From a virus: DNA of 48,173 nt. This document shows positions 14,891-47,447 of the stretch, piece after piece. The notes beneath the pieces were generated by a model that was not told where the DNA came from, ran no database searches, and was given only the letters and a program-made list of their open reading frames with translations. The DNA lies in IMG/VR virus record IMGVR_UViG_3300022307_000001, positions 1 to 48,173 of that record, one strand, 5' to 3'. The number at the start of each line of letters is the position of its first letter. The stretch's first letter is position 1. The position numbers were made by a program, and so were the translations under genes.

Positions 14891-16941
14891 AAATTACCCC
14901 CTGGTAGTTGAATTTGCGCTGTGGCAGGTTGCCCAGATGATGGCGGTTTTTCGGCTTGAGGAGGAGCCGGTTGCGGCATACCAGGAGAGGGAGTACCCAT
15001 TAACTGGGCCTGCTCTGCTTCAACTGCCGCCATCATCTGAGTTTCCTGAATGTGTTTTGTAAATGCGAGTTTATATTCTTTTGGTAGTCCCTTATACAAA
15101 TCTGTTTGAGAGAAGTTTAAATGCACCAGCATATGATCTTTATGATTTTCGCCTGGTTTTGGTTTTATATCCAAATCGCCTTGCGCAACTTTAGCATTTT
15201 CTACCATTGGGCTTGTTGGCATTTCAGGCATATCGGGCAGGATCAAGGAACGGTTTCTTTTCTCGTATGTGTCTAGTAAATCAGATGTAAGTGCGTGAAG
15301 TGCTACTGGATTTTGCCCAACCAATGGATTTGTTATCAGAACTTGGTATAACTCCATAGCCTCTTGTCGTTGCATATGCCTTGAAGCAAATGTTGGGTCT
15401 CCTTGTGGGATTACATCGTGAACACCTGAAAAGTCCTCTTTTTTGGTCTCTTTAAACGCTATTTTATCTGGCGACTCCATTACCCGATATTGTTTTGCAT
15501 CGGTTAAATAAAGCTGGTTTAAGGTCATTATAAGCCTTAGTTCTTTACGCACAGACCGTAGAATCCTCTTTGTAAGCACGGCAAATGTAATCAAACCCTG
15601 TTCAATTACTGCCATTGTGCCGGATGCGGTGGGTGTTTTAACCCCTTTTTGCTGTCTACCGGATAAAAGCTCTGTGGCCGATGTGAATTGCTCTGAATAT
15701 TGCTGGATAAGGCCAAGCGCCATGAAAAGAATCTGGTCTACACGCTGCACGTTGGGGAAGTTAATAGCGCTTGCGTCTTCAACTTCGTACATTCCGCCTG
15801 GTTTTATCTTTATTTTCCTGCTTTTGAATCCGGCACGTCTTGAATAGAAGCCAAAAGGCTGATTTGACAGCCTGCCAGAATCAAAAATCTGGTTAAAAGC
15901 TGTATTAGCCATTTCATTTAACGGTTCTAGGAAATGCCCGAAACCAAAAGAGTACCAACCCTCTGGATTTGGTATAAAATGGTAGTCGATGAAGTAATTC
16001 AAGGTAACTTTTTTGTTTCCAACCTCGTATTCACGCACAACCGCACGTAAAAGATAGCCGGTGTCTTTATGCACCCAAAAGATAACAGGTTTTTTGACTC
16101 CATCGACTTTCCAAACACGGTGTTGCTCCAGTACAAGCCCTGGTTCGTCTGTTGACCGTTCTGGTGATTCGCCTGCCACTATATCGGCTGTTTGTTTTAG
16201 TGCCGGATCATCTGTGTCACTCTTAGAAGGTGTATCAGGCGGGTCTTCTTTTAAAGGGAAATCCCTATAAAACTCAGAGTCTATTCTGTCTTCTACCTCG
16301 TCTGGATGAAACCAGAGGCGATGTGTCATTCTTCTGGCTGTTTTTAGGCTCTTTGTCTTATACGGTACTACAAAGTCAAGGGCGCTTATGAAGTGGCTTT
16401 CTGGTCTGTCATTGTCTTTGTCCCATGTCAATTTTCTGACGGCAATACCATTTATGGGCAATAGTTGGAGGGTTCTGTCGAATGTATCTTCATACTCTTC
16501 CATATCAAACAGAAGCTGCCAGTTTAGAAAAGCCTCCACGTTTTTACTTCGTTTAATATCGTTCTCACCTACCGGGATTGTTTTAACAACACCAGGAGCA
16601 GCAAAAATAGACTGATAAGACCTTGCATGCATCTGGTTTGAAGCGCCGGCAAGCATTGGGATGCAAACATTACTAGCCCCAGGCCACGGATCTGTTTTAG
16701 GCTCTCTGTAGCACGTCCATAGTTTATAGTATCTGTTTCTTTTTTCTTCCCATTCTGACCTTGACCGGATATCAGCATCGTAGTCTTCAATGACAGTTTG
16801 AGCGATTAGTTTCTGTTCTTCTTCGCTAAAATTACCGGCTATGTTAACCGTTGCTTTCTCGCCTGCTGTTTTCATTTCAATATCCTGTCCATTGGTTTGC
16901 TGTTGACTTATGGTTGTCTTCTTCGTCGTCTTCGTCTTCAT
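14887..16941 (-). CDS. portal protein
   Basis: 662-684 aa, directly downstream of TerL. The maximal ORF overlaps TerL by 65 nt. The ATG at 16875 (MKTAGEK..), just after the TerL stop at 16877-16879, is the more likely start. Confidence 0.7.
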   Translation of the reverse strand: MKTKTTKKTTISQQQTNGQDIEMKTAGEKATVNIAGNFSEEEQKLIAQTVIEDYDADIRSRSEWEEKRNRYYKLWTCYREPKTDPWPGASNVCIPMLAGASNQMHARSYQSIFAAPGVVKTIPVGENDIKRSKNVEAFLNWQLLFDMEEYEDTFDRTLQLLPINGIAVRKLTWDKDNDRPESHFISALDFVVPYKTKSLKTARRMTHRLWFHPDEVEDRIDSEFYRDFPLKEDPPDTPSKSDTDDPALKQTADIVAGESPERSTDEPGLVLEQHRVWKVDGVKKPVIFWVHKDTGYLLRAVVREYEVGNKKVTLNYFIDYHFIPNPEGWYSFGFGHFLEPLNEMANTAFNQIFDSGRLSNQPFGFYSRRAGFKSRKIKIKPGGMYEVEDASAINFPNVQRVDQILFMALGLIQQYSEQFTSATELLSGRQQKGVKTPTASGTMAVIEQGLITFAVLTKRILRSVRKELRLIMTLNQLYLTDAKQYRVMESPDKIAFKETKKEDFSGVHDVIPQGDPTFASRHMQRQEAMELYQVLITNPLVGQNPVALHALTSDLLDTYEKRNRSLILPDMPEMPTSPMVENAKVAQGDLDIKPKPGENHKDHMLVHLNFSQTDLYKGLPKEYKLAFTKHIQETQMMAAVEAEQAQLMGTPSPGMPQPAPPQAEKPPSSGQPATAQIQLPGGNL

Positions 16942-19225
16942 ATGGATACCAAACAGTCCCTAAAAGCAGAGTCCTGTAAAGGTTCTCCATCATATCGTCA
17001 CGTTCTTTCTGTGGCTTCTGAGTTTCCTTGTCGTACATCCACCCTTCTATTTCGTCGATTGTCCGTACCATATCATCGAAAATAAAAAGGCTAGGTTCGC
17101 CATTTGGCCCTTCTAAATGCTGGTTTATTTCTATTACGCCGCTTTGTTTATCTTTTGAACCTGTCTGCAATGGTGGAAGTCCGTTATTGGCCAGCACCAT
17201 GTCTATTTTATCGAATGTGGTGTTATCGTTGTTTGAATCGCCTTTTGCAAATGGATCGCAAAAAATAGTGCCAACACGTAAATTAAATTGCCGTACCATT
17301 CTTACGATCTGTTCACCAACCCACACACCATCGCCGTGTTCCCAAACTTCAAAGCATAAATACCGTTCCTGTTTAGGGCTTGTCGCTGTGAATAGAATCG
17401 CCTGCTGTTTTCTCGGATGGATGTCAATACCAATATCAACAATCCAATCAAGCGGGATTTTAAATCTTTTCTTTAGATGCTTCTTCCGGCTAAAGTTCTT
17501 AGCCACCAGCCCGCTCATATAGCTTGGCTTGCCGTTTATACGTGCGTCGATTTCCTCTTCGGTTAATCCTTTTTTAAAATGCTCCAGCCCTTCCGCTGTT
17601 ATACCAAACCCTACATTACTATAGCTGCTGCCGGTTACATTAAAAACAGTCCTGTCAGGTGTGCCGTCTTCGTTCTTTGCTCTTATAACCTCACGGTCAA
17701 CCCACGCCTCTCCTAGAAGAGTCATACAGAACAGCTCACGGCCATTTCTATCAACCAAGCCCCTTGAATTTGCTACTCTAATCTCTCTTTTAGGTGGTTC
17801 GTCGTAAATAATTAAATCACCCCACCATCCTTCATGGAGCTTACTTTCCTGGTTGTTACTCATTATTTCAAGTGTAGAACCTGTCTGCACATCTGTCCAC
17901 ATCGCCTCTACGCCCAAACTATTCTTTTTAACCGCTACTTCCCTGTTCTTAGGCCATAACTCATACATAGCAGGGATAATAACGGTTTTAATATGTTTTT
18001 CCCAATCCTGCCCTACCCACCGTATCTTTCTAGGCTTTGAATGAGTAAAAGGCAATCGCTTGTTATTCCACGGCCATTTGCCAATCATCGTAGAAATACC
18101 TACAACGCCCCCGGTGAATGTATTGTGGTGAACCATCCCAGCTGCACAATAGTTATGATATTTTTCTACTTCAAAGTCGTAAACATCCTTGACTCCTATT
18201 GGTTTTATTGATATAACTTTATTACCATTAGTAGTTAAAATCTTACCAAAAGGAGAAAAGGATGACGAAGAAGACAGAGTTTGTTCTCGATGACATGAAG
18301 TTTTTGATTGAGGAGCGTGAGCTACAACAGTGGCTTGTGGCGAAAATGATGGGGGTGCACACGTCAACTGTGGAAAAGTATTGCAAGACGCATCAGCTAA
18401 AAACCCAGAGAACTGGCCCGAAAGGTGGCGCATTGCATCCAAAATGGAATGGAGGAAAGAAGATACTCGGCGGGTATATGTATATTTATTCCCCCAACCA
18501 TCCGAACAGGACAGGGCAAAAATACGTCGCAGAGCATCGGCTAGTGATGGAAAAAAAGATAGGGAGGCTGCTGACAACAGAAGAGGTTGTCCACCACATA
18601 GATGGCGACACAATGAATAACCACCCGGGGAATCTTGAGTTGTTTGATCGTAATTCTTCGCATATAAGGCATGAGCTTTCAGGTCGTCCACCTCATCCGA
18701 ACCAGCGTCTTGGCAGAGGGCATAAACTGGGCGGTACTCGCCATCGGTGCATAGAATTAAGTGCCCATCAGCCGCCTGAATTGTGGTTCCATCATCCATT
18801 GTGATCTCGTAACATTTGTGAGAGCCTTCTTTCTTAAACGGGACGGAGGCTCTTGCCACCACCTTCCTATTTTTCTGTTCATCCCAAGCTATTACGTCAA
18901 ACTGTTCACCAGCATCATATAACTCCCCCAGCTTAATACTCCTTGTAGGAGTGTCAATCATCGCCTCTCTAGTCAGACATTTACCACCCCTGTTGCCAGA
19001 GGTAAAAGTAACTATCTTGTAATATGGATCTTCCCAAGCAGAAAGAACTTCCGCCTGTAATGGATTTGCTGGCATTAACGGTGTGTTGAAGTGATATATC
19101 TTCTCACTCTCAAATATAGACGCCTTAGCCGATTCAAGCTGCTTTAACTTGTCATCCTCTTTAAGCAACTCACGGCGTATCCTGTCTATCTCCGCTAATT
19201 CTTCCTTTGTTAACTCTTTCCCCAT
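16877..19225 (-). CDS. terL: terminase large subunit, interrupted by a 286-aa intein in the Walker A loop
   Basis: The exteins join to give GNRGGK|TFTGG (Walker A GxxxxGKT). Walker B is DLIIYDEPP. Nuclease-domain acidic motifs are IGIDIHP and DDMMENLYR. GGGGAGAG sits before the ATG. Confidence 0.9.
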   Translation of the reverse strand: MGKELTKEELAEIDRIRRELLKEDDKLKQLESAKASIFESEKIYHFNTPLMPANPLQAEVLSAWEDPYYKIVTFTSGNRGGKCLTREAMIDTPTRSIKLGELYDAGEQFDVIAWDEQKNRKVVARASVPFKKEGSHKCYEITMDDGTTIQAADGHLILCTDGEYRPVYALCQDAGSDEVDDLKAHALYAKNYDQTTQDSPGGYSLCRHLCGGQPLLLSAASLSFFPSLADALRRIFALSCSDGWGNKYTYTRRVSSFLHSILDAMRHLSGQFSGFLADASCNTFPQLTCAPPSFSPQATVVAHAPQSKTSCHREQTLSSSSSFSPFGKILTTNGNKVISIKPIGVKDVYDFEVEKYHNYCAAGMVHHNTFTGGVVGISTMIGKWPWNNKRLPFTHSKPRKIRWVGQDWEKHIKTVIIPAMYELWPKNREVAVKKNSLGVEAMWTDVQTGSTLEIMSNNQESKLHEGWWGDLIIYDEPPKREIRVANSRGLVDRNGRELFCMTLLGEAWVDREVIRAKNEDGTPDRTVFNVTGSSYSNVGFGITAEGLEHFKKGLTEEEIDARINGKPSYMSGLVAKNFSRKKHLKKRFKIPLDWIVDIGIDIHPRKQQAILFTATSPKQERYLCFEVWEHGDGVWVGEQIVRMVRQFNLRVGTIFCDPFAKGDSNNDNTTFDKIDMVLANNGLPPLQTGSKDKQSGVIEINQHLEGPNGEPSLFIFDDMVRTIDEIEGWMYDKETQKPQKERDDMMENLYRTLLLGTVWYPYEDEDDEEDNHKSTANQWTGY
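18189..18217 (+). promoter_or_regulatory. sigma70-like promoter for the antisense HNH gene
   Basis: TTGACT (18189-18194), 17-nt spacer, TATAAC (18212-18217), about 45 nt upstream of the ATG at 18262. AAGGAG RBS at 18249-18254. Confidence 0.55.
18262..18804 (+). CDS. HNH homing endonuclease, encoded antisense within the TerL intein
   Basis: Core is GYMYIYSPNHPNRTGQKYVAEHRLVMEKKIGRLLTTEEVVHHIDGDTMNNHPGNLELF, preceded by an HTH-like N-terminus (QQWLVAKMMGVHTSTVEKYCK). It has its own RBS and promoter. The last roughly 35 codons look like run-on antisense of the intein block B region. Confidence 0.8.
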   Translation: MTKKTEFVLDDMKFLIEERELQQWLVAKMMGVHTSTVEKYCKTHQLKTQRTGPKGGALHPKWNGGKKILGGYMYIYSPNHPNRTGQKYVAEHRLVMEKKIGRLLTTEEVVHHIDGDTMNNHPGNLELFDRNSSHIRHELSGRPPHPNQRLGRGHKLGGTRHRCIELSAHQPPELWFHHPL

Positions 19226-20624: not shown

Positions 20625-20933
20625 ATGAAACCAAGAACAATAAAATTCATCTGCACCGCTGTAAAATGGTTTGATAGAGTAAACGGTAACACCTACCACT
20701 CAGTAAGGATTGAACGTGTCAGAGACGGCAAGGTAATTGCCCAGGGCATGACATACGGTTACGGTGAGCATTACAGGCAAACAGCACTCAAGCTAATGTC
20801 AGAAAACAAATGGCTGCCGGTTAAATATCGTGGCAAAGAAAGAATAAACTATTGCCGTGAGAATAACTATCCTATTCACTGGGAAGTTACAACCGGACTT
20901 AAAAGAGATATGGTTAATAACGCAATTATTTAA
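20625..20933 (+). CDS. hypothetical early protein
   Basis: 102 aa with a strong RBS. The KWFDRVNGNTYHSVRI motif recurs in phage proteins of unknown function (from memory only). Confidence 0.65.
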   Translation: MKPRTIKFICTAVKWFDRVNGNTYHSVRIERVRDGKVIAQGMTYGYGEHYRQTALKLMSENKWLPVKYRGKERINYCRENNYPIHWEVTTGLKRDMVNNAII

Positions 20934-20945
20934 AGGAGACAAACT

Positions 20946-21209
20946 ATGAGCGCTTTCGAAATAGGTGACAAAGTAATTGTCAAGACTTGCGGTGGGGAAT
21001 TTAGAGGAATCTTGCGCAACAAGGTCTATGATTTATGGTCTGATGATTTTATTTATCAAGTTTCCGGTGACGATATAATAACTAACACCCGTGAAGTGTT
21101 CCCGGACATCGGGCAAAGGTTATCAAAGGGGCCGACTTGCGACACCTGCAAGACCTCTAAAGATTGCGCTTTCTCTTCTGCAAAAAAGGAGTTTACCGAT
21201 GACCATTAA
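20946..21209 (+). CDS. hypothetical early protein
   Basis: 87-aa ORF with AGGAGACAAACT before the ATG. Confidence 0.6.
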   Translation: MSAFEIGDKVIVKTCGGEFRGILRNKVYDLWSDDFIYQVSGDDIITNTREVFPDIGQRLSKGPTCDTCKTSKDCAFSSAKKEFTDDH

Positions 21210-21393
21210 CGGAAAGACAGTAACACGCCAGGACAAACCACCGCTTCTTTTCTCCCTCTGCTGCACCTGTGGGAAGATCAAAAGTATTCCCATATCAGAT
21301 AAATATATGCTCTCACATGGTTATTGTTTGCCATGCTTTGATAAAATAGAATACCCAAGGAGGTCGCACAGTGAAAATACTATTAACCAATAA
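21199..21393 (+). CDS. small zinc-ribbon protein
   Basis: ATG at 21199 after AAAAAGGAG. CCTCG...CLPC Cys pairs. The longer track ORF 21091.. overlaps the previous gene out of frame. Confidence 0.55.
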   Translation: MTINGKTVTRQDKPPLLFSLCCTCGKIKSIPISDKYMLSHGYCLPCFDKIEYPRRSHSENTINQ

Positions 21394-21613
21394 GTTTCAC
21401 AACACGACAATGTGGACTAGAGTAGAACCTCACCTTGAAGGAGCAGCCGAGCGTGGGGAGTATCTTGACGAACTAGCTTATTATTTTAACAATCCTGGAT
21501 GCGATGAAACAAAAAAAGAAAGGCGCATCTTTAGGAATTTATGCCCACACAAGCTACGGAGTTGTGATTGTTCTTCTATGGTAACTTATGGAATAATGGA
21601 GGAAGTAAAATGA
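21371..21613 (+). CDS. hypothetical early protein
   Basis: 80 aa, GTG start after AGGAGG. Confidence 0.5.
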   Translation: MKILLTNKFHNTTMWTRVEPHLEGAAERGEYLDELAYYFNNPGCDETKKERRIFRNLCPHKLRSCDCSSMVTYGIMEEVK

Positions 21614-21762
21614 ATAAATTTAAGTTTGTTTGTACTGCTTGCCAGGAAACCGGCGAAGACTCAGGGCCATGTATACTTGAAGTACGGATAAAGGAGAAGA
21701 GTTGCCGCCCGCCTATGGGATGTCCTTATGGGCCACGTGTGTGTGATTGGAGGCCGGAATAA
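21610..21762 (+). CDS. small Cys-rich protein
   Basis: ATGA overlap with the previous stop. GGAGGAAG RBS. CTAC...C...C...C pattern. Confidence 0.5.
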   Translation: MNKFKFVCTACQETGEDSGPCILEVRIKEKSCRPPMGCPYGPRVCDWRPE

Positions 21763-21820
21763 ACGTCTCTCTTTGGCAACTGTACGATTAATTTTTCAGA
21801 CATATAGCGAGGTAGACAAA

Positions 21821-21970
21821 ATGGGAAGGACAGCATATAAACCAGGCAAGAAAAAGGAGACAACATCTATACGGCTGTCTCCAATACTAATACGGATCAT
21901 GGAAGAAGAAAAGGTTAACCGGAGCCAGCTTATAGAAAAGCTGTTAAGGATTCACTACGGTATTATTTAG
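21821..21970 (+). CDS. ribbon-helix-helix (CopG/Arc-like) DNA-binding protein
   Basis: 49 aa. TSIRLSPILIRIMEEEKVNRSQLIEKLL fits the RHH beta-alpha-alpha pattern. Last gene before the terminator. Confidence 0.55.
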   Translation: MGRTAYKPGKKKETTSIRLSPILIRIMEEEKVNRSQLIEKLLRIHYGII

Positions 21971-22007
21971 CCTTCTTTGTCTTCTTGGCGTAGGTCTTAG
22001 ATTTAAT

Positions 22008-22047
22008 CGGCACTCCCTTGATTACCTTGGGAGTTGCCGGTTTTTTT
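22008..22047 (+). terminator. rho-independent terminator of the short early operon
   Basis: CGGCACTCCC / GGGAGTTGCCG stem (one bulge) followed by TTTTTTT at 22041-22047. Confidence 0.65.
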
Positions 22048-22189
22048 ATTGATTTCTTTGTATGTTTCATAATAGTTGGGCCTCACCTTTTGCCGTTCTC
22101 TGTGAAGTTATTTCAGTTAGTTTTAGCGGACTTGGATTATTGGCCCATTGCACTTCCATACTATATTCTGCTTACTTTGTCAACTAATA

Positions 22190-22480
22190 TTATACAGCAG
22201 ACACCCTCTTGAACCTATCCAGCAGCAAATTTAAAACTCTTGCAAATCCCTTGCGCCACTCAATTACTTGTCCATTTTCAACGACGGTGTATGAATCTAT
22301 TCTCCCGGAATCATATAATTCAAGCACCACCTTTCTATAGCCATAATCGAAGTCCTCCACGACTATCCTTCGTCTATACTCTGGCACTTTAATCGGGTAG
22401 TCGGGCTCAGGGTGTTCAAGCCGTATTCTTTCCTTTGCCGCAAGCATCCTTTCAGATATTTGTTTTGTGAAATGGGTCAT
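22190..22480 (-). CDS. hypothetical protein (last gene of the leftward early operon)
   Basis: 96-aa ORF. Confidence 0.6.
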   Translation of the reverse strand: MTHFTKQISERMLAAKERIRLEHPEPDYPIKVPEYRRRIVVEDFDYGYRKVVLELYDSGRIDSYTVVENGQVIEWRKGFARVLNLLLDRFKRVSAV

Positions 22481-26614: not shown

Positions 26615-27958
26615 CTACCTAACTGGTCTGTGCATGGTCATTTTGCTCTCAAACCTTGTAAGACCACCTTTCCATATTAAATCAACTGACCCTGTTGGCC
26701 CGTTTCTGTGTTTCCTTATCAATATTTCAGCTATGCCTTTAAGTGGATTATGCTCCGAATCATTATAAACCTCATCGCGGTAGACGAAAGCTACAACATC
26801 AGCGTCTTGCTCTATTGCTCCTGAGTCTCTTAAATCAGACAACAGTGGCCTTTTGTCGGTTCTGGACTCACAACCCCTGTTTAATTGAGAAAGTGCTATA
26901 ACGGGCACCTTTAGCTCTTTAGCCATAGCTTTAAGCTCTCTTGAGATAATGCTTGTCTCTTCTTCCTTGCTTCTTGCTTTGGTGTGGCTTAGTTGCAGGT
27001 AATCAATCCAGATTGCTTTTATGTCGTACTTTTCCTTTATTCTTCTCGCTCTGCTTCTGATGTCATAAGGGCTTAGCCCTGCCGAATCATCAATAAAAAT
27101 ACCCATATTAGCCAATATTCTACAAGCGGCACGGACTTGTTCAATTTCCTCTTTGTTCAACTTGCCGTTTCTGATCTTAAATGAGTCTATCTTTGAAATG
27201 GAAGAAATAGCTCTGAATACTAAAGACTCGTCGTTCATCTCCAAACTAAAGATTGCTTGGTTATTCCCTGCCTTTGCCGCATTTTCGATTATGTTCATTG
27301 CAAGGGCTGTCTTGCCCATGCTTGGCCTGCCGGCAACAATTATCAGGTCGCTTGGTTTTAGTCCAGTAAGAATAAAGTCTAAATCGTCGTAGCCGGTTTC
27401 CATGCCAAGCGCTTTGATCTCTCCACTTGCCAGCTTTTCTATTTGTGACATAACTGAACCGATAACCTCGCCAATATGCTTAAACCCTTCCGATTTACGC
27501 CTGACGGATGATTCATAAACAATCTTCTCAAGTTCTTCTGTCATCTCGCTTGGAGAGTCGCCGTTATCATTATAACATTTCTCGGTTATCTCTTGCGCCA
27601 TTGAAATAGCGGCTCTTAAATCTGCTTTGTGCTTTATTATCTTTGAGCCAGTTCTAACACCGGAAATTGATGGTATGCAATCAGACAAGAACGAAACATA
27701 TGCAGCCCCACCGCATAGACCAAGATTGCCGTGTGTTTCTAATTTATTGGTTACGCTTACGATGTCTATGTTGTCTCCTTCTTCATGGAGGGCCTTTACC
27801 GCTGCGAATATGCCCTGGTGTGCTGGTTTGTAAAAATCTAATACTTTTAAATGGCTAACAACATGAAAGGCACAGTCGTCATTCATTAAAGCAGATCCCA
27901 ATACCGCCTGCTCGTATTCAATATTTTGCGGCGGTAGCCTATGCGCTAAGTTTTGCAT
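26615..27958 (-). CDS. dnaB: replicative DNA helicase DnaB
   Basis: PPQNIEYEQAVLGSALM N-terminal domain. Walker A is GRPSMGKTALAMN. Walker B region is AIWIDYLQL. The start at 27958 follows AAGAGGAAT. The maximal ORF extends to 28018. Confidence 0.9.
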   Translation of the reverse strand: MQNLAHRLPPQNIEYEQAVLGSALMNDDCAFHVVSHLKVLDFYKPAHQGIFAAVKALHEEGDNIDIVSVTNKLETHGNLGLCGGAAYVSFLSDCIPSISGVRTGSKIIKHKADLRAAISMAQEITEKCYNDNGDSPSEMTEELEKIVYESSVRRKSEGFKHIGEVIGSVMSQIEKLASGEIKALGMETGYDDLDFILTGLKPSDLIIVAGRPSMGKTALAMNIIENAAKAGNNQAIFSLEMNDESLVFRAISSISKIDSFKIRNGKLNKEEIEQVRAACRILANMGIFIDDSAGLSPYDIRSRARRIKEKYDIKAIWIDYLQLSHTKARSKEEETSIISRELKAMAKELKVPVIALSQLNRGCESRTDKRPLLSDLRDSGAIEQDADVVAFVYRDEVYNDSEHNPLKGIAEILIRKHRNGPTGSVDLIWKGGLTRFESKMTMHRPVR

Positions 27959-40454: not shown

Positions 40455-43400
40455 TTATGTTCTCGCAATAACGTACCATGCTCCGGTTAAACACACCATC
40501 ACAACCGACTCGTACCGTTTCGTGCCACCAGTGTTTAGTTCTATGCTTGCCGAACTTGTGTTTTGGTAATATATAGAATCGCTACCGTTTGCTGCTATCG
40601 TCGTTTGATTGGTCGCATTGAACCCGGAGAATATATACAGTGTTCCTTCCTTTATCGTTGCGATTGATGGCAGGTTTAAGGTAATATCTCCTAAGTTTGC
40701 ATTACAGAAAAACCAAGTGAACGACGGCTCTGTGATTGTATACGGTGAACTCCCTGAGTTTACAGATACCCACGGCAATCTTCCACCGCTTACCAACTCC
40801 TTAAACACTACATTACCCACTGCACTTATATCGGCAACAGGGCTACCATCACTTGATAAAATTGATGATGTGTTATCGGTTATTTTTACACTTCCCGCCT
40901 CAACGTCTGCAAAAACGGGGGCACCTGTGGTTGTGACATCTTGGCTCGTTCCTGAGCCATGTTTATGATAGGTTGAAGCATCTGAACCGTTAAGTACTGT
41001 ATTGACAGTATATCCGGCGACTGATAACACATTAGTAGAGGGGTTAAACCGGAAATTAGCGTCAGTCTGTATTAGTGCGTTGCCTGTTGCGCTGTTCCCA
41101 AACGTGACATACCTCTCAGCGTCAGACGATCCGCCGGTTAGATTAACATTTGTGGCGTTAGTCGCGGTTGCGGCGGTTCCTCCAATGTTTAAAGCTGTGG
41201 CTGTACCTGTTAATCCTGTCCCGGCACCAGAGAAAGAAGAGGCAGTAACACTATTTGTTACAGATAAAGAATCGTGGACAGTCACAAGATTCTCAGCAAT
41301 TGTTAGTTCCTTATTGCTGTCAGATGCTAATCCGTTGACGTGAAATGTAATAGGGTTGTTCGTAAACTCATTAAATAAAATGCCATTTTCTGAATTGCTA
41401 AAAAGAGCGGTTTTAGATGCAAAATAAGCCGCAGAATAATTTAAACCATACGTCGAAAACGTAAATGTTGCTTGGTTTGTCCCGTCAGCGTCCGCCGCTT
41501 TCATTCGTATTGAACTTTCTACGGTGGCATTATCGCCGTATGACTCAAGATTGATCCGTGTTGATCCGCCATCAGTCTTGTAACCACTAAAAACAGGTAT
41601 GGAGTCTTTCCCGACGACTCCTGGATCGGCATCACCATATAACTTGCCAACTTTGTCTAAGTGATCCCATGTCTCATAGTAAAGATCGGTTGACGCTAAA
41701 TAGATATAACGCAACACTATTCTCTCGTTGGCAGCAAGAGCATTAATTGCTGTTTCTGGCGAAGGTTGTAAATTTCTTACTATTTTGGCCTCTGTAGCCG
41801 CATCAAAAAACGGGGAAGCTATATTGCCATCACCAGTAGCGTTTTGTTTAATTATTATACTAAATTCTGTCGAGTCAGATGGGTCAACGAATTTCAAAGA
41901 GTTTGGCGACCACGCATTGTCAAGATTATACACACCTTGTTTATATCCATCTGCGATAAATTGAGGGTGTACTGTTAACGATGTTGCAGTATCGGTATAG
42001 GTATTAGCGTCCATCGTGCCGGTCATATAAAGCATGTTACCTCTTGCCCACACATCATCATCTTGCACAGCGAATGTATCATTGTGTGTTGCGTCATTAC
42101 AGCCAGCGAGTGTTAATTCTTGCCCTTTGATAAAAGGGAAAGCGTCCCATGCAGTTGACCCGATACTTAAAGCAAACGTATCTTGAGAATATGCGTAAGT
42201 TGGCAGTGAACTATTTTGGCTAGTTCCGGTAGCATCATCAGCAACCCATGTGTCGGTAAAATAATAGTTTGTCGCATCAATAACAGTTATCTCAAAATCA
42301 CCGTTGTAATTAGTGGTGCCGGCGTGAGTGGTCACACTTCCGGTTGAAAAACCATGCGCCGTTGCGGTAGTTGCTTTTACTGTACCGGCTACTGTGCCTG
42401 AATAATCCGCAAACGCCGTAATATTAGCGGTGTCATACATGCCGTTGGTTAAGCCGTAGCTGCCACCCGTTACTTGATAGGCGATTTTCTGTTCCCTACC
42501 AACTATCCCGGCATTATGTAATTTGACAACACCGTTAAACTCTGGGTCTAAATGCAGATCTCCTCTCGCATCATTCTGTGTACCTAAAGTTGTAGCTGTA
42601 AAACTTGCCCCCGTACCCGCCTCTATGTTGTTCTGAGCATTCTGGTAGTCAAGCAAATCAAAGTGATTTCCCTTGCTCCCCTTCACATAGCTAATAGCTG
42701 TCCCTGGGATTACATCGTCGGTGCCGTAAAGATATATGTTTTTTAGAGATGTGTTTTCAAAAACTGATGTCCAGAAAAGCTCATATTCCCAATAATCCTT
42801 GTCTGCATTTGAAATCGAACTTGTATCAGCTCGACCAAGGCCATGTTGAACCATCCCCCACGAACCAAGAGACTTGCCGCCAACCTGCCGAAAATAATTA
42901 TTATCACCAGCTATACCTTCTATCGCCGGGGAATAGGCAGCTTCTGCTTCACCATTCTCAAATACGTTATAAAATCCGCTAATCCGTAGGCACCCGCCTA
43001 ACGGCCAGTTGTTCTTGGATAATGAGGTACTGTAACTTCTATTCATCAGATAGAAATTTTTAATATTATTTTCCTGGGACGCCCTTGGTAAACTCCCGAC
43101 TTTATCCCAAGTCACACCGGCATCTGAGGTAGACCATTGATAAAAACCAATTCCAAGATACATCACCACATCACTTGCGTAATAGGCCCCGACATTAATA
43201 AAATCTGAGTCTGCCAAACTCCTTGCTGATATGCAGATAGTGGCCATTGCGCTGCCGGTTGGATATGTGTACCAATCCCAACCGACAAAATCCATGTTAA
43301 TAATACCTGACGTTTGGTTTCTAAAATCGGAATAATTAACAGAAGGAGCGCCAACAGGGTTGGCAGTTGTAGTTGGCTCTATTTTGATCATTTCCTCATT

Positions 43401-44897
43401 GCCGCCGCCCCACCATATAGTAGCTTTGGGAAAGGTTGTGCCAGTTGTATCAGGAGCGTTGTAGTAAGTATTGTTATCCGTGTCCATCCACCGTTGATGT
43501 CTGCCTTCACCAACCCAAGGCACCCCGTTTGCGTCCCTGGTTATGGTACCTGTGATGAGATAGGTTTTGGTATTGTCTTTGTGGGGAAAGAATAGATGTT
43601 TGCCAATAGAATCGGCATAGTCTGATGCCGCTTGAATCTCAGTAGTCCAGTCAGTACCCACTCCGGTTGATGGCACATAGTCAGCGGTTACGCCAAATTC
43701 ACTGACCGACACAAACCCCTCTTTTAGCAACGTGGCCACGTTTATTGCCGCTGAACCTGTTACGCTCCGGTCATATTGTAGGTCGGCGTTGCTAAGACTT
43801 TGCCCAACCGCCACAGCCTCACCGTCTGCCGTACCGTCTGCAAGTTCGACAATCTTATTTCCCTCCATCACAAGCTGATTGCTTGCGTTTACAGAAAGTA
43901 TTGCTGTGTCTGGGAAGCCATCAGAGTTATACAGAGTTAGTTCGTCAGCACCTGATTCGTACTGCCAATAGAAATCAGCCCCATTTCCGAACTGAGCCGC
44001 CACACCGTCACGGAAAAGTATCGGCGTATACCGTGACAAGGCAACACCGTTTTCTTGCGACACCTGCGTTATTCCGGCGTAATTTAAGACAGTGCCGCTT
44101 TGTTCGTAAACATTGGCTCCGGCTGAGTTTGTCCACCATTTCTGGTAAACGGCTGAGTTGGTGTCGAACCCGTTTATTTGCGCCCCAGCGACATGATCTT
44201 GTTGGGTGATGTAAGTGGCACCAATATTGGTAAGGTCGCCGCCAACTAAATCCACATTGCCAGAATCATCTATAATAACACTAGAGTCTTGTACCCCGTT
44301 AGCCCCGCCGTCACCTCTGACAATGGCATTGTCGGTTATGGTGCTTGCCGCTGTTACATCGCCATATCCGGTAAGATGAGAATGGAGATTTGTAACAGAC
44401 CCATCCGTTAGCTCTTCTAACTCTGCCCCGGTAGCGGTTGTATCTGAATGGCTTGCGATTGTATGAGATTCTGCGTGTCTTGCAGCTGTGTTGGCAGCTA
44501 CATCTGAATGACTTGAACCGTCACTGGTTATATGCGCTGTGTTTGTGACTACATTTGCATGATCGCTGCCGTCGCCTGCCCTGTGGGTATCGTTTAGGAC
44601 TACGTTAGAATGGTCTGTGCCATCTGACGCAATATGATTTGTGCTTGCGGTTATTGCCGTATCTATCTGGTCGTGGGTATTAGTTCCTATTCCCGTTAAT
44701 TGGCTGTGGGCTGTTATTCCGCCAACTCCACCGCCGGTTATGTCTATTGTGATATCGTTATCACCAATATCTACCGACACAGCACTTGTAGTTATGTCAA
44801 CCTCTACAGAATTACCGTCTATTTCTACACTTACAGAAGCGTCTGCTAATTCAACGGTAACTTCTTGTGAGACAAGCTCTATTGTTATATCAGACAT
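40455..44897 (-). CDS. giant tailspike/fibre with a pectate-lyase-type beta-helix domain
   Basis: 1480 aa. The N-terminus has short V-x-V-[ED]-I repeats. Residues 63-174 form a His-rich repeat block. SVSEFGVTADYVPSTGVGTDWTTEIQAASDYADSIGKHLFFP matches the Pectate_lyase_3 / tailspike signature. Confidence 0.75.
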   Translation of the reverse strand: MSDITIELVSQEVTVELADASVSVEIDGNSVEVDITTSAVSVDIGDNDITIDITGGGVGGITAHSQLTGIGTNTHDQIDTAITASTNHIASDGTDHSNVVLNDTHRAGDGSDHANVVTNTAHITSDGSSHSDVAANTAARHAESHTIASHSDTTATGAELEELTDGSVTNLHSHLTGYGDVTAASTITDNAIVRGDGGANGVQDSSVIIDDSGNVDLVGGDLTNIGATYITQQDHVAGAQINGFDTNSAVYQKWWTNSAGANVYEQSGTVLNYAGITQVSQENGVALSRYTPILFRDGVAAQFGNGADFYWQYESGADELTLYNSDGFPDTAILSVNASNQLVMEGNKIVELADGTADGEAVAVGQSLSNADLQYDRSVTGSAAINVATLLKEGFVSVSEFGVTADYVPSTGVGTDWTTEIQAASDYADSIGKHLFFPHKDNTKTYLITGTITRDANGVPWVGEGRHQRWMDTDNNTYYNAPDTTGTTFPKATIWWGGGNEEMIKIEPTTTANPVGAPSVNYSDFRNQTSGIINMDFVGWDWYTYPTGSAMATICISARSLADSDFINVGAYYASDVVMYLGIGFYQWSTSDAGVTWDKVGSLPRASQENNIKNFYLMNRSYSTSLSKNNWPLGGCLRISGFYNVFENGEAEAAYSPAIEGIAGDNNYFRQVGGKSLGSWGMVQHGLGRADTSSISNADKDYWEYELFWTSVFENTSLKNIYLYGTDDVIPGTAISYVKGSKGNHFDLLDYQNAQNNIEAGTGASFTATTLGTQNDARGDLHLDPEFNGVVKLHNAGIVGREQKIAYQVTGGSYGLTNGMYDTANITAFADYSGTVAGTVKATTATAHGFSTGSVTTHAGTTNYNGDFEITVIDATNYYFTDTWVADDATGTSQNSSLPTYAYSQDTFALSIGSTAWDAFPFIKGQELTLAGCNDATHNDTFAVQDDDVWARGNMLYMTGTMDANTYTDTATSLTVHPQFIADGYKQGVYNLDNAWSPNSLKFVDPSDSTEFSIIIKQNATGDGNIASPFFDAATEAKIVRNLQPSPETAINALAANERIVLRYIYLASTDLYYETWDHLDKVGKLYGDADPGVVGKDSIPVFSGYKTDGGSTRINLESYGDNATVESSIRMKAADADGTNQATFTFSTYGLNYSAAYFASKTALFSNSENGILFNEFTNNPITFHVNGLASDSNKELTIAENLVTVHDSLSVTNSVTASSFSGAGTGLTGTATALNIGGTAATATNATNVNLTGGSSDAERYVTFGNSATGNALIQTDANFRFNPSTNVLSVAGYTVNTVLNGSDASTYHKHGSGTSQDVTTTGAPVFADVEAGSVKITDNTSSILSSDGSPVADISAVGNVVFKELVSGGRLPWVSVNSGSSPYTITEPSFTWFFCNANLGDITLNLPSIATIKEGTLYIFSGFNATNQTTIAANGSDSIYYQNTSSASIELNTGGTKRYESVVMVCLTGAWYVIART

Positions 44898-45257: not shown

Positions 45258-47447
45258 TTATTTCCTCATTCTGCTAAAAGGAACTTCTTTTAATGGATTA
45301 CCCTCGCCAGCTATTTCAAGCTTTCTTAACCTTTGCAATTCTGACTCAGACACACTGCCTTTTGTCGGTGATGCTATATTTTTAGTTCCCAACTTACTTG
45401 CTATATCCGACAGAGATTGATTGGACGCTTGCGGAGTGTCTACCAGAACAAAATCTTTGGTCGCCCCTGGCAATTGTGGCAAAGGAGGGCTACCAGGAGG
45501 TAGAGATGTATAGTCGGCCCCTAGTTTTCGTCTTATCATTTCTCTGCCTTCTGGTGTTTTAGCTGTTTCTACCAACCAATCTATAACATCGTCTGGCTTA
45601 ATTTTAGCCGGGAATCTTGTAGCTTCGTGCGTGATCTGCCTGGGGACGATGTTCATTATGTCCCCAATATCTTCCGCAAATTCATTTACAGCTTTTGTGT
45701 ATTCTGCTTGTGTCTTTGCGGAGGTTAAAATATTTTTCAACCCATTATCTATATATTCAGACCCTATACCAGCAAGCTTCCCCACATAACTCCTTGGCTT
45801 CATCTTGTTTGGGAGGTTCTTTCTCATATCTACTGCTTCATCAACCTGCTTAAACGACTTAGCCATTATATTGTTAGGGTTCTTCATCTTTTGAACAAAT
45901 GCTTTTTCAGCCCTTGGTATAGCTCCCATTAGGAATTGGGAAGGGTTTTGAGTCGCCAGACCTAACGCTATATGGGTATCAGCAAAGGCATCAAACATGG
46001 TGTTTAGGTCGCCTTTTGTTTGCTTTGCGATAGATGAGAACTTGTTTGCTATATCGTCCCTAACAACGATTAGAGAGCCATAATTGCGCCTAGCTTTTTT
46101 CCATCCTTCGCCATCTCCGCCTGTTCTTTTTATTACATCGTCTATTTCGCCTCTTAGATAGTCTGCCTCGATAGCGTTAAGAGCGTTTTCACCAGATGAC
46201 ATTGACCTAATCTTATTGGAGGCAGCCGTTGATACTTGGCTGTTCATTTCAGCTAGTCTTCCTTGCGCCCTCACTAAATCTAGTCTTCCGACATCAACAA
46301 GATATTCTATCCTATCGTCTATCGCATCCAGGTCTTTAGGTGCCCAGACTCCAATCTTTTCTTCTTTTAATTTTCTCAGTTTATTAACAAGGTTTACATA
46401 ATCAGCTTTGCCGCCCTTGGCCCCACTCGCCTTCACCATGTCGTCAAATTGTTTGAAGAATATCCCTTCCAGTTGCTCTTCTGCTTGAAACGCTGATTTA
46501 AGGTCGGTTGGAATAGTCACTTTAGCACCGTTAAAATCAGTGAGGTCTAAGAGGTCTTTATTGCTGACAACTTCGTCCATATAGGTTGCCATATGCTCTT
46601 TATACGCTTCCGGGCCTTTTATCGTTTTTATCTCGCCTGTAGGCAACTCCTTCTGAAACTCTGTGGCGTTTATATTTCTTATCTTCGCCGTTCTGAGGTT
46701 TTTATTCCCAGGCTTTACAGCCCTCAAAGCATCGTCAGCAGCGCCTGAAATAGACTTGCCTATACGCTCTGGTTGCCTTCTAGTTATTATTTCAGAGGCA
46801 TCTTTAAGAATATCTAAAGGTTCTTTGGCGGCTATTTGAGTGCCTTTTGCAACAGGGATAAATTCCGCCAGTGCCAATATGCCAGCGACCCTAGCGGCAT
46901 CTTTTGGGTGGGCTTTAGCGTATTTTTTTACTGCCTCGGCCCCTTCGCCTATAGCCTCAAACACTCCTTGGTATTGTGGGTATTCTGCAATATTATTGAT
47001 AATACTTTTTGCTTGCGCCTTTACCGGGTCGGGTATCTGCTCTGATACTAATTCAGCTGCCGGCGCTAGTGCTTTATCAAAAACAAAGTTTTCCAGGGTG
47101 TCTACAACTGGTTTGACTAATACATGAGCAGCGAACATAGCCGGTGCTGACACAATATCTTCTGCTACGCCAAAGACTTTGCCGGTTTGCTCCCCAAAGA
47201 CAGACTCAGTTAGCCGCTGGGTAATACCTTTATCTTTGCCCACCGCTTGAGAAAACCGTTGAATACCTGTGGTGCCGATTGGTTCCCTGTCCGCCCTATC
47301 TATGGTCGGGATTACTTCATCTTCTGCAAATGGGTCAAAATCTACAGGCTCAATATCCGGTTCAGCAGATAATGCCTCTTCAAATGTAGGAGGGGCTTGT
47401 TGCTCTTCCGCAAATGGGTCGAAGTCTATTTTTTCTAGTGTAGCCAT
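45258..47447 (-). CDS. large virion protein (putative internal/ejection protein)
   Basis: 729 aa. The N-terminus has duplicated DFDPFAE motifs. It lies between the wrapped 478-aa gene and the Ig-like gene. No catalytic motif recognised. Confidence 0.6.
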   Translation of the reverse strand: MATLEKIDFDPFAEEQQAPPTFEEALSAEPDIEPVDFDPFAEDEVIPTIDRADREPIGTTGIQRFSQAVGKDKGITQRLTESVFGEQTGKVFGVAEDIVSAPAMFAAHVLVKPVVDTLENFVFDKALAPAAELVSEQIPDPVKAQAKSIINNIAEYPQYQGVFEAIGEGAEAVKKYAKAHPKDAARVAGILALAEFIPVAKGTQIAAKEPLDILKDASEIITRRQPERIGKSISGAADDALRAVKPGNKNLRTAKIRNINATEFQKELPTGEIKTIKGPEAYKEHMATYMDEVVSNKDLLDLTDFNGAKVTIPTDLKSAFQAEEQLEGIFFKQFDDMVKASGAKGGKADYVNLVNKLRKLKEEKIGVWAPKDLDAIDDRIEYLVDVGRLDLVRAQGRLAEMNSQVSTAASNKIRSMSSGENALNAIEADYLRGEIDDVIKRTGGDGEGWKKARRNYGSLIVVRDDIANKFSSIAKQTKGDLNTMFDAFADTHIALGLATQNPSQFLMGAIPRAEKAFVQKMKNPNNIMAKSFKQVDEAVDMRKNLPNKMKPRSYVGKLAGIGSEYIDNGLKNILTSAKTQAEYTKAVNEFAEDIGDIMNIVPRQITHEATRFPAKIKPDDVIDWLVETAKTPEGREMIRRKLGADYTSLPPGSPPLPQLPGATKDFVLVDTPQASNQSLSDIASKLGTKNIASPTKGSVSESELQRLRKLEIAGEGNPLKEVPFSRMRK

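Follow-up and report, generated by a model that had tools for sequence, protein, structure and literature searches.

An HNH endonuclease gene nested antisense within the terminase intein of a viral genome and its relatives

Why does an intein in a viral terminase gene have, at the point where an endonuclease would be inserted, a long stretch without any endonuclease motif? The question is raised by the 48,173-nucleotide (nt) IMG/VR record IMGVR_UViG_3300022307_000001, which we analyzed over its whole length and refer to as the window. Its minus strand encodes a precursor of the terminase TerL of 782 amino acids (aa) (16877-19225), interrupted in its Walker A motif, or P-loop, by a 286-aa intein (18122-18979). 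Within the intein, on the plus strand, lies an open reading frame (ORF) for an HNH endonuclease (18262-18804). A first-pass annotation, made from the sequence without database searches, had proposed that this ORF is an endonuclease gene nested antisense in the intein, with both strands kept open. We conclude that the locus very probably comprises a cis-splicing P-loop intein whose endonuclease insertion point is occupied, on the opposite strand, by an HNH homing endonuclease gene of the free-standing type.

The intein extends from Cys83 of the TerL precursor (18979-18977) to Asn368 (18124-18122) and is of class 1, starting with Cys1 and ending in His-His-Asn followed by Thr. It matched the Pfam family Intein_splicing (PF14890) with E=4.2e-11 and 43.3 bits, against a cut-off of 35.8. 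Based on these boundaries and on alignment, the N-extein (aa 1-82; 18980-19225) ends in SGNRGGK, the last residue being the Walker A lysine, and the C-extein (aa 369-782, stop included; 16877-18121) opens with the Walker A threonine as residue +1. Computed removal of the 286 residues gives a 496-aa spliced product with a restored Walker A motif, GNRGGK|T, and intein-free relatives in the TerL alignment have an uninterrupted GxNRxGK-T. The insertion site is common to the window intein and 16 or more TerL relatives. Across an alignment of 17 inteins, the nucleophile Cys1 (TerL Cys83, CLTREAM...), block B His73 (DGHLILC), and His285 and Asn286 of the C terminus (...MVHHN|T) are invariant.

Structure prediction divided the intein into three parts. 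The N-terminal splicing domain (residues 1-93; 18701-18979), with blocks A and B including DGHLILC, and the C-terminal splicing domain (residues 242-286; 18122-18256), with blocks F and G (KVISIKPIGVKDVYDFEVEKYHNYCAAGMVHHN), were both modeled by AlphaFold with a confidence (pLDDT) of about 90 (89-98 and 87-96, respectively). The insert between them (residues 94-241; 18257-18700), which is the antisense translation of the HNH gene, stayed below 50, at about 30. Foldseek matched the confident parts to the mini-inteins NpuDnaE and Ssp DnaB (probability 1.0, target-normalized TM score 0.75-0.77). The N-terminal 93 aa and C-terminal 45 aa are thus predicted to form a complete mini-intein HINT fold. 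The 148-residue insert is predicted to be a disordered loop, stop-free and unconserved as protein, and no Pfam endonuclease profile matched the TerL-frame translation.

Read on the other strand, the same DNA encodes a recognizable enzyme of 180 aa, stop included. The ORF matched HNH_3 (PF13392) at aa 92-130 (E=1.2e-8; 34.9 bits, above the cut-off of 24.8) and several PHROG HNH endonuclease families, with E values down to 1.7e-22. His111, His112, Asn120, and Asn124 are invariant among 61 sequences, and the window copy has all family-invariant residues. The AlphaFold model built from these 61 sequences has a mean pLDDT of 85 and is confident over aa 9-140. Three N-terminal helices (9-18, 23-30, and 34-43; pLDDT >90) form a predicted helix-turn-helix-like DNA-binding domain (aa 9-43; 18286-18390), which also gave a weak match to Pfam HTH_17. 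The putative beta-beta-alpha-metal core (aa 88-140; 18523-18681), YVAEHRLVMEKK...VVHHIDGDTMNNHPGNLELF...HIRHE, was modeled with strands at 109-112 and 125-128 and a helix at 131-140, all with pLDDT >93 (core 93-98). The C-terminal tail (aa 145-180) is of low confidence (18697-18804; pLDDT 55-63), and these last ~35 codons of the window HNH amount to an unstructured read-through over the intein N-domain.

The folded parts of the two proteins therefore alternate along the DNA: the disordered intein stretch (18257-18700) almost coincides with the folded part of the HNH protein (18262-18696), and the unstructured HNH tail in turn overlaps the folded intein N-domain. These results uphold the first-pass annotation on several counts. 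The claim of a class-1 intein with splicing blocks, reducing TerL from 782 to 496 aa, agrees with the PF14890 match and the HINT fold model; that of an HNH gene on the plus strand agrees with the HNH_3 and PHROG matches, the fold model, and a weak structural match to I-HmuI; and the reported lack of an endonuclease motif in the intein middle agrees with the missing profile match and the predicted disorder. The exact window ORF is absent from the protein collection because gene callers skip it.

To find relatives, we used a word-indexed protein search. The intein alone retrieved nothing, and the full TerL precursor retrieved mostly intein-free homologues of ~485 aa, along with ~16 proteins of 760-843 aa that have an intein at the same site with an unconserved S/L/Q/F/C-rich middle. 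Each of three intein-bearing relatives has, at the DNA level and in the phase of the window, an antisense ORF (171-212 codons) that encodes a well-conserved protein with helix-turn-helix and HNH regions and is preceded by AAAGGAG and ATG. We then scanned public contigs with an alignment of the nested HNH proteins. This gave at least 409 relatives in JGI metagenomes, at least 562 in IMG/VR viral contigs, and 132 (8 of them full-length) in GTDB genomes, and 80 loci were kept from each. The JGI and IMG/VR sets together hold 120 distinct loci among 160. In 119 of these 120, a minus-strand frame runs without a stop over the full length of the HNH match, and its phase never differs; the exception ends at a contig edge. 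Intein N- and C-domains flank the HNH gene on the opposite strand in nearly all loci, and the eight full-length GTDB relatives are nested alike. The nested antisense HNH gene is a large family and not a single case. A profile search of 1.84 billion representative proteins returned 2,950 clusters at E<=1e-30, a number that counts similarity and not nesting.

Cultured viruses are among the carriers. Seven Pectobacterium phage isolates (Koroua, Amona, Sabo, Taid, Pappous, Ymer, and Abuela) carry the layout; an eighth phage record, that of Dickeya phage Setonix, is unannotated and was scored for the match alone. Phage Koroua (PQ008972.1, 2451-4715; locus L175) encodes, before the portal gene, a 754-aa TerL with the intein AGFG|C...HHN|TGKS. 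Its antisense HNH ORF of 232 codons is unannotated, and GenBank labels its TerL a "hypothetical protein." The paper describing these Pectobacterium phages mentions neither the intein nor the HNH gene. The layout is borne by viable, plaque-forming phages. In two metagenome loci, gene callers gave the HNH gene and, of TerL, just the C-terminal part; one of the two (L177) has an uninterrupted full-length TerL ORF, and the other (L178) a frameshift further downstream.

Evidence that the TerL frame is kept open comes from stop codons. Position 1 of each HNH codon lies opposite position 1 of a TerL codon, and the HNH wobble base lies opposite TerL-frame position 2; ~440 nt are read in both directions. 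With this phase, an antisense stop requires an HNH codon ending in TT, CT, or TC followed by a codon beginning with A, the same rule that had been worked out by hand before. It follows that nearly every antisense stop can be removed by a synonymous change in HNH, save where Phe precedes an A-initial codon. In the window, the HNH ORF has 16 such risky codons, close to the earlier hand count of about 17, and none stands before an A-initial codon, although 49 of 138 codons are A-initial. Synonymous resampling or shuffling predicts 3.7-4.8 antisense stops where none is observed (P(0) 0.002-0.006). Shuffling of codon order predicts 6.7, and 0.02% of trials (2e-4) had none. Other window genes, read in the same phase, contain stops at 5.6% per codon, and their longest open run is 137 codons, against >180 here. 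From the window alone, the case that the antisense frame is open beyond chance is suggestive.

Once the relatives are counted, the case is decisive. The 115 distinct HNH ORFs contain no antisense stop, compared to 754 expected when synonymous codons are shuffled and 1029 when codon order is, and none of 3,932 risky codons precedes an A-initial codon (1,066 expected). The proposal that read-through is selected therefore stands, for the window and for its relatives. The footprint extends to the protein: Phe followed by Ile, Met, Thr, Asn, or Lys does not occur in 122 HNH proteins (70.5 +/- 7.5 expected), because Phe plus an A-initial codon makes the sole stop that cannot be removed synonymously. 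The same dipeptides occur 76 times in 60 more distant homologues, the majority of which are probably free-standing. In addition, 75 free-standing HNH_3 relatives from GTDB genomes, matched over the HNH core only, have short antisense open stretches in random phases, and thus provide a natural negative control.

The two frames differ in what is conserved. Along the HNH codon, nucleotide entropy is 1.09 bits at position 1, 0.89 at position 2, and 1.67 at position 3, so that the most variable nucleotide is HNH position 3, which is position 2 of the TerL frame. Compared pairwise, copies with 55% nucleotide identity are 52% identical as HNH proteins and 23% identical as intein-frame translations. 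Both frames are open beyond chance, but protein-level purifying selection acts on the HNH frame alone, based on entropy and identity, and the TerL frame is merely kept open. The check suggested in the first-pass annotation, conservation of both frames among relatives, accordingly came out in part: both stay open, and only the HNH frame is conserved as protein. The HNH ORF is intact in ~120 of 122 loci. In two loci, the HNH frame is interrupted by a stop and the TerL frame is not; the converse was never seen.

The nuclease gene also appears to have its own start codon, ribosome-binding site, and sigma-70-like promoter within the codons of block F. On the plus strand of the window, a Shine-Dalgarno (SD) sequence, AAGGAG (18250-18255), lies 6 nt before the ATG and reads as an S-P-F motif in the TerL frame. 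A promoter-like site, TTGACT-17-TGaTATAAC (18189-18217), has a predicted transcript start near 18224. Its -35 hexamer TTGACT (18189-18194) occupies G-V-K codons and its -10 hexamer TATAAC (18212-18217) K-V-I-S codons of intein block F. The first-pass annotation had listed both signals at these positions and assigned them to codons of the C-terminal splicing domain; the promoter is embedded there, and AAGGAG falls in the last codons of the insert, just 5' of that domain. Relatives have a consensus TTGACA-17-TATAAT at the place of the promoter. Nearly all of them start with ATG, and 88 of 124 have a GGAG-type SD motif when a strict window is applied. AAAGGAG is conserved among relatives and is seen in the intein frame as a "conserved" x-P-F/L motif.

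We scored promoters across the loci on a scale up to 13, with shuffling and synonymous resampling as controls, using a sigma-70-like consensus that may not be that of the hosts. Of the loci, 38% scored at least 10 of 13, compared to 3.5% of shuffled sequences. The distance from the end of the -10 hexamer to the HNH ATG clusters at 29-39 nt, and several loci have a perfect TTGACA-17-TGnTATAAT. The hexamers lie at homologous codons across loci, with the -10 in I-I-S/V-I-S of block F and the -35 just before (E/D)VYDF. When intein codons were resampled with the amino acids fixed, the native score beat the resampled ones at p<=0.05 in 32% of loci and at p<=0.01 in 16%.

A 20-nt inverted repeat (18184-18203 and 18245-18264, 85% complementary) would pair the -35 region with the HNH SD and ATG. 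Plus-strand RNA begun further upstream is predicted to fold at -27.6 kcal/mol with the SD hidden, and RNA from the predicted start to be unstructured (-2.4 kcal/mol). Some homing endonuclease genes of phage T4 are controlled in a similar way. We do not count the SD-hiding hairpin as part of the mechanism, as it was not enriched in the family (41%, against 38% in controls).

The nuclease gene has spread among hosts and has been lost from some. Three Walker A insertion registers occur: GK|T, NR|SGKT, and G|TGKS. The closest HNH copies are found in TerLs that are <30% identical to the window TerL or without detectable similarity to it, and HNH proteins from dissimilar terminases are 50-57% identical to the window HNH. 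One copy lies outside terminases: at L086:422-3832 (minus strand), an intein with antisense HNH gene interrupts the P-loop (GILGDNG|C...NHN|SGKS) of a 1137-aa SMC_N/AAA_23 ATPase of Rad50/SbcC-like type. Separately, a 1255-aa terminase-like ORF (L153:341-4105, minus strand) apparently has two inteins, one of the antisense-HNH type in the P-loop and a larger insert near the C terminus (NNHAAS|CFDAETEV...). A free-standing relative, 56% identical over the HNH core, was seen at L259:2501-3022, on the opposite strand between a portal gene and small unknown genes with no recognizable terminase beside it; it could be the free-standing state of the nuclease near packaging genes.

Among close TerL relatives, intein-free alleles are the majority, and HNH-bearing alleles and, at the same site, mini-intein alleles of 150-170 aa also occur; both of the HNH-less states that the earlier annotation had suggested looking for were thus found. 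In one mini-intein (P0004; L262:501-2504), the antisense strand has an SD, an ATG, five codons, and a stop, and then a remnant of the HNH C terminus (ELKGKCPNWTPEG... / ELKGKCPNWTPEGYENIL...), with the intein frame intact. We read this sequence as a clean in-frame deletion scar of the HNH gene. The same TerL family also contains an in-frame HNH_3 intein at another, C-terminal site (P0035, protein GY845_30430 of an NCBI metagenome-assembled genome) and LAGLIDADG inteins at other sites (P0007 and P0103). With in-frame and antisense nuclease inteins in one family, this terminase is an intein hot spot. Judged from sequence, this series of presence, absence, and decay is what a homing element residing in an essential gene should produce.

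Together, these observations suggest the following cycle. The disordered loop would be translated as part of TerL and then removed with the intein by protein splicing. The HNH protein would be made from its own promoter, independent of the late TerL message, and, during co-infection, would nick or cut, near the P-loop codons, terminase alleles that lack the intein. Repair would copy the intein and nuclease gene into the cut allele, and a nuclease gene that later decayed could be deleted in frame to leave a mini-intein.

Several points weigh against this account. Transcription, translation, splicing, and cleavage are steps that we infer from sequence conservation and predicted structure. The promoter-like site of the window is absent from the list of the promoter scanner, because the scanner demands that the -10 hexamer end in T, and that of the window ends in C; TATAAC is a weakened copy of the family promoter, TATAAT having been changed by an Ile-to-Val replacement in the window intein. 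About one-third of loci have no good sigma-70-like promoter, and their hosts may use other promoter types. The median locus shows no gain over synonymous resampling (median p 0.215). The best PDB match of the HNH model, I-HmuI (1u3e), is weak (E=0.36, probability 0.92). A comparison of C termini did not recognize the conserved P-N-W-T-P-E-G motif in the window HNH: at 18680-18720 (aa 140-153), where nearly all relatives have GRxPNWTPEG, the window reads GRPPHPNQRLGRG, and the TerL frame there is protein-like (YALCQDAGSDEVDDLKAHA). The window copy may have lost a DNA-binding tail and, given the missing motif, may be partly decayed or in early decay, with the catalytic invariants still present. 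Finally, the spliced TerL of the window has no direct match in a profile search of Pfam, PHROG, and PDB.

The name TerL instead comes from homologues and gene order. Seven of 35 close intein-free homologues (52-66% identity) matched Terminase_6N, with a best E of 1.2e-6, and one of 35 matched Terminase_6C. The window protein has a Walker A (GNRGGKT) and a Walker B-like motif (DLIIYDEP) and is encoded directly upstream of an SU10-type portal gene. The two ORFs, on the same strand, overlap by 65 nt (16877-16941) as judged by ORF extents; in two relatives (L010 and L012), TerL overlaps the next gene by ~53 nt. The window TerL is a singleton cluster in the protein collection. A DNA search of phage records with the intein region found no match, so no close nucleotide relatives are deposited there.

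A further question is whether the antisense layout is an adaptive design or a tolerated accident. A promoter facing the late terminase transcript could make the nuclease early, while target genomes replicate, and convergent transcription or antisense RNA could delay or tune TerL synthesis, so that the element would serve both as a packaging timing device and as a homing element, a counterpart of intron-loop genes. If true, this would directly show inteins and nucleases to be separable, independently evolving partners. We regard the adaptive view as rather doubtful.

All rival explanations fit the data much less well than an antisense homing endonuclease. The best of them, although improbable, holds that the HNH protein is a packaging accessory nuclease of the HK97 gp74 type, and that nesting co-locates it with TerL. 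Nearly all copies are indeed in terminase genes, and HNH genes beside terminase genes and cos sites are common in phages (PMC3592412). Yet most close TerL relatives have neither intein nor HNH gene, and deletion derivatives without HNH keep TerL intact. The copy in the SMC/Rad50-like ATPase, and the movement of the closest HNH relatives among unrelated TerL families, also count against it, as does membership in an HNH_3 and helix-turn-helix family whose nearest known structure is the intron-encoded I-HmuI.

Less probable still, TerL might be made in two pieces joined by trans-splicing, as a fractured gene with a split intein, in which case the open frame would be irrelevant. In the known cases, of which one is a terminase (PMC2677866), the halves of the split intein do flank a free-standing endonuclease gene. 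At our loci, however, the N-intein is not followed by a stop, nor the C-intein preceded by a conserved start or SD, and the very strong selection for a continuous single ORF would be pointless in a split gene.

We find it hardly credible that function resides in the middle of the intein frame, as a real domain, and that the opposite strand resembles HNH only as an unexpressed relic or by artifact. The long TerL ORF is usually the only one reported by gene callers, and the HNH ORF is missing from the protein collection, as this idea would have it. Selection, however, has the opposite signature: variability peaks at HNH codon position 3, identity is 52% with all catalytic residues in the HNH frame against 23% in the other, and the HNH ORF is intact in ~120 of 122 loci. 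The HNH protein is predicted to fold at pLDDT >90 and the insert to be disordered, and most copies have an ATG and an SD-like motif, with a promoter at a fixed place.

Next to no weight is left for chance or decay, in which a free-standing HNH gene landed antisense, the terminase is dead, and the open frame is a coincidence of one contig. The window is an uncultured metagenomic contig with a singleton TerL, and a single 180-codon antisense open frame is possible given the protein sequence (P ~0.002-0.006), but openness in one phase at 119 of 120 loci, 0 stops against 754, the missing Phe-[IMTNK] dipeptides, and the free-standing relatives that are not open refute it, and the layout occurs in cultured, plaque-forming phages. 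An invertible segment or assembly inversion of an in-frame nuclease domain, for which the in-frame HNH_3 intein at another site of the same TerL family (P0035) might speak, is just as remote and was rejected, since no inverted repeats flank the segment in the window and ~135 loci from independent assemblies and cultured genomes are all antisense, none flipped, with the HNH gene having its own ATG, SD, and promoter.

Elsewhere in the window, a run of small ORFs (64-102 aa) lies on the plus strand between minus-strand blocks (20625-22212); with their exception, no coding sequence other than the HNH gene was seen on the plus strand over the first ~31 kb. A DnaB-type helicase (26615-27958) is intein-free, two very large minus-strand ORFs of 1480 and 729 aa (40455-44897 and 45258-47447) have no Pfam match, and no tRNA genes were found in the window.

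The family has consequences beyond this locus. The entire cycle of gain and loss is visible within one family, which supports the idea that mobile inteins arise by invasion of mini-inteins by free-standing nuclease genes. Of interest for intein engineering, the intein family apparently accommodates, at the insertion point, ~150 disordered residues of arbitrary sequence. For annotation, gene callers either miss the nuclease gene or truncate TerL. As carriers have been cultured, the proposed steps are open to experiment.

How does this arrangement compare with known systems? Searches of the openly available full-text literature, which does not take in subscription-only papers, found no account of an intein with an antisense endonuclease gene, in line with the novelty first suggested for the locus. 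In canonical bifunctional inteins, as here, the HINT domain is interrupted at the same structural position by a mobility nuclease, distribution is sporadic, the P-loop is a site of insertion, and decay leads to mini-inteins. Their nuclease (LAGLIDADG or HNH) is in frame, whereas the one described here is encoded separately, on the complementary strand, with a predicted promoter, SD, and ATG of its own, and the intein polypeptide carries only its meaningless antisense translation.

Group I introns carry homing endonuclease ORFs in their loops, some on the complementary strand, and take part in collaborative homing with free-standing genes. Like the present family, they have a selfish nuclease gene that is silent inside a self-splicing element and expressed apart from the host gene. 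An intron ORF is removed as RNA and so needs no translatability in the host frame; here ribosomes must read through, which imposes the dual-coding constraint. The phage-borne I-HmuI likewise combines an HNH_3 core with a helix-turn-helix DNA-binding module, at 26% sequence identity over 81 columns to the window HNH. Its domain order is the reverse, the helix-turn-helix being N-terminal here, and its gene is in sense orientation within a group I intron, in contrast to the antisense gene in the window intein.

P-loop inteins of mycobacteriophage TerL lie between the Walker A Lys and Thr, with a second P-loop site nearby (Kelley et al. 2016, PMC5050341). The first of these is the same classic insertion point as in the window, and no antisense endonuclease gene is described in that paper, whose text has none of the words "antisense," "opposite," and "reverse." The nearest published arrangement is the fractured gene, in which a free-standing GIY-YIG or Vsr-like nuclease gene lies between split-intein halves (PMC2677866). 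As here, the endonuclease insertion point of an intein in phage-like DNA is taken up by a nuclease gene of free-standing type that brings its own control elements, and one reported example is a terminase. The host gene there is in two ORFs joined by trans-splicing (the strand of the nuclease gene was not part of the comparison), whereas here the intein is contiguous, within a single ORF in 119 of 120 loci, because an antisense nuclease gene puts no stop into the host frame.

Other antisense dual-coding gene pairs also have two opposite-strand frames open over >400 nt. The present pair is asymmetric for a clear reason, a folded enzyme facing a frame that need only be translatable, and the evidence for antisense overlap is far stronger than for most proposed pairs. 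With hundreds of diverged copies and a footprint that reaches down to a forbidden dipeptide, it offers a clean test case for overlapping-gene theory and for the calibration of gene finders. To our knowledge, the associations known between inteins and nucleases are in-frame fusion and the fractured gene with its split intein. The loci described here point to a third arrangement: an intact cis-splicing intein with an autonomous nuclease gene on the other strand.

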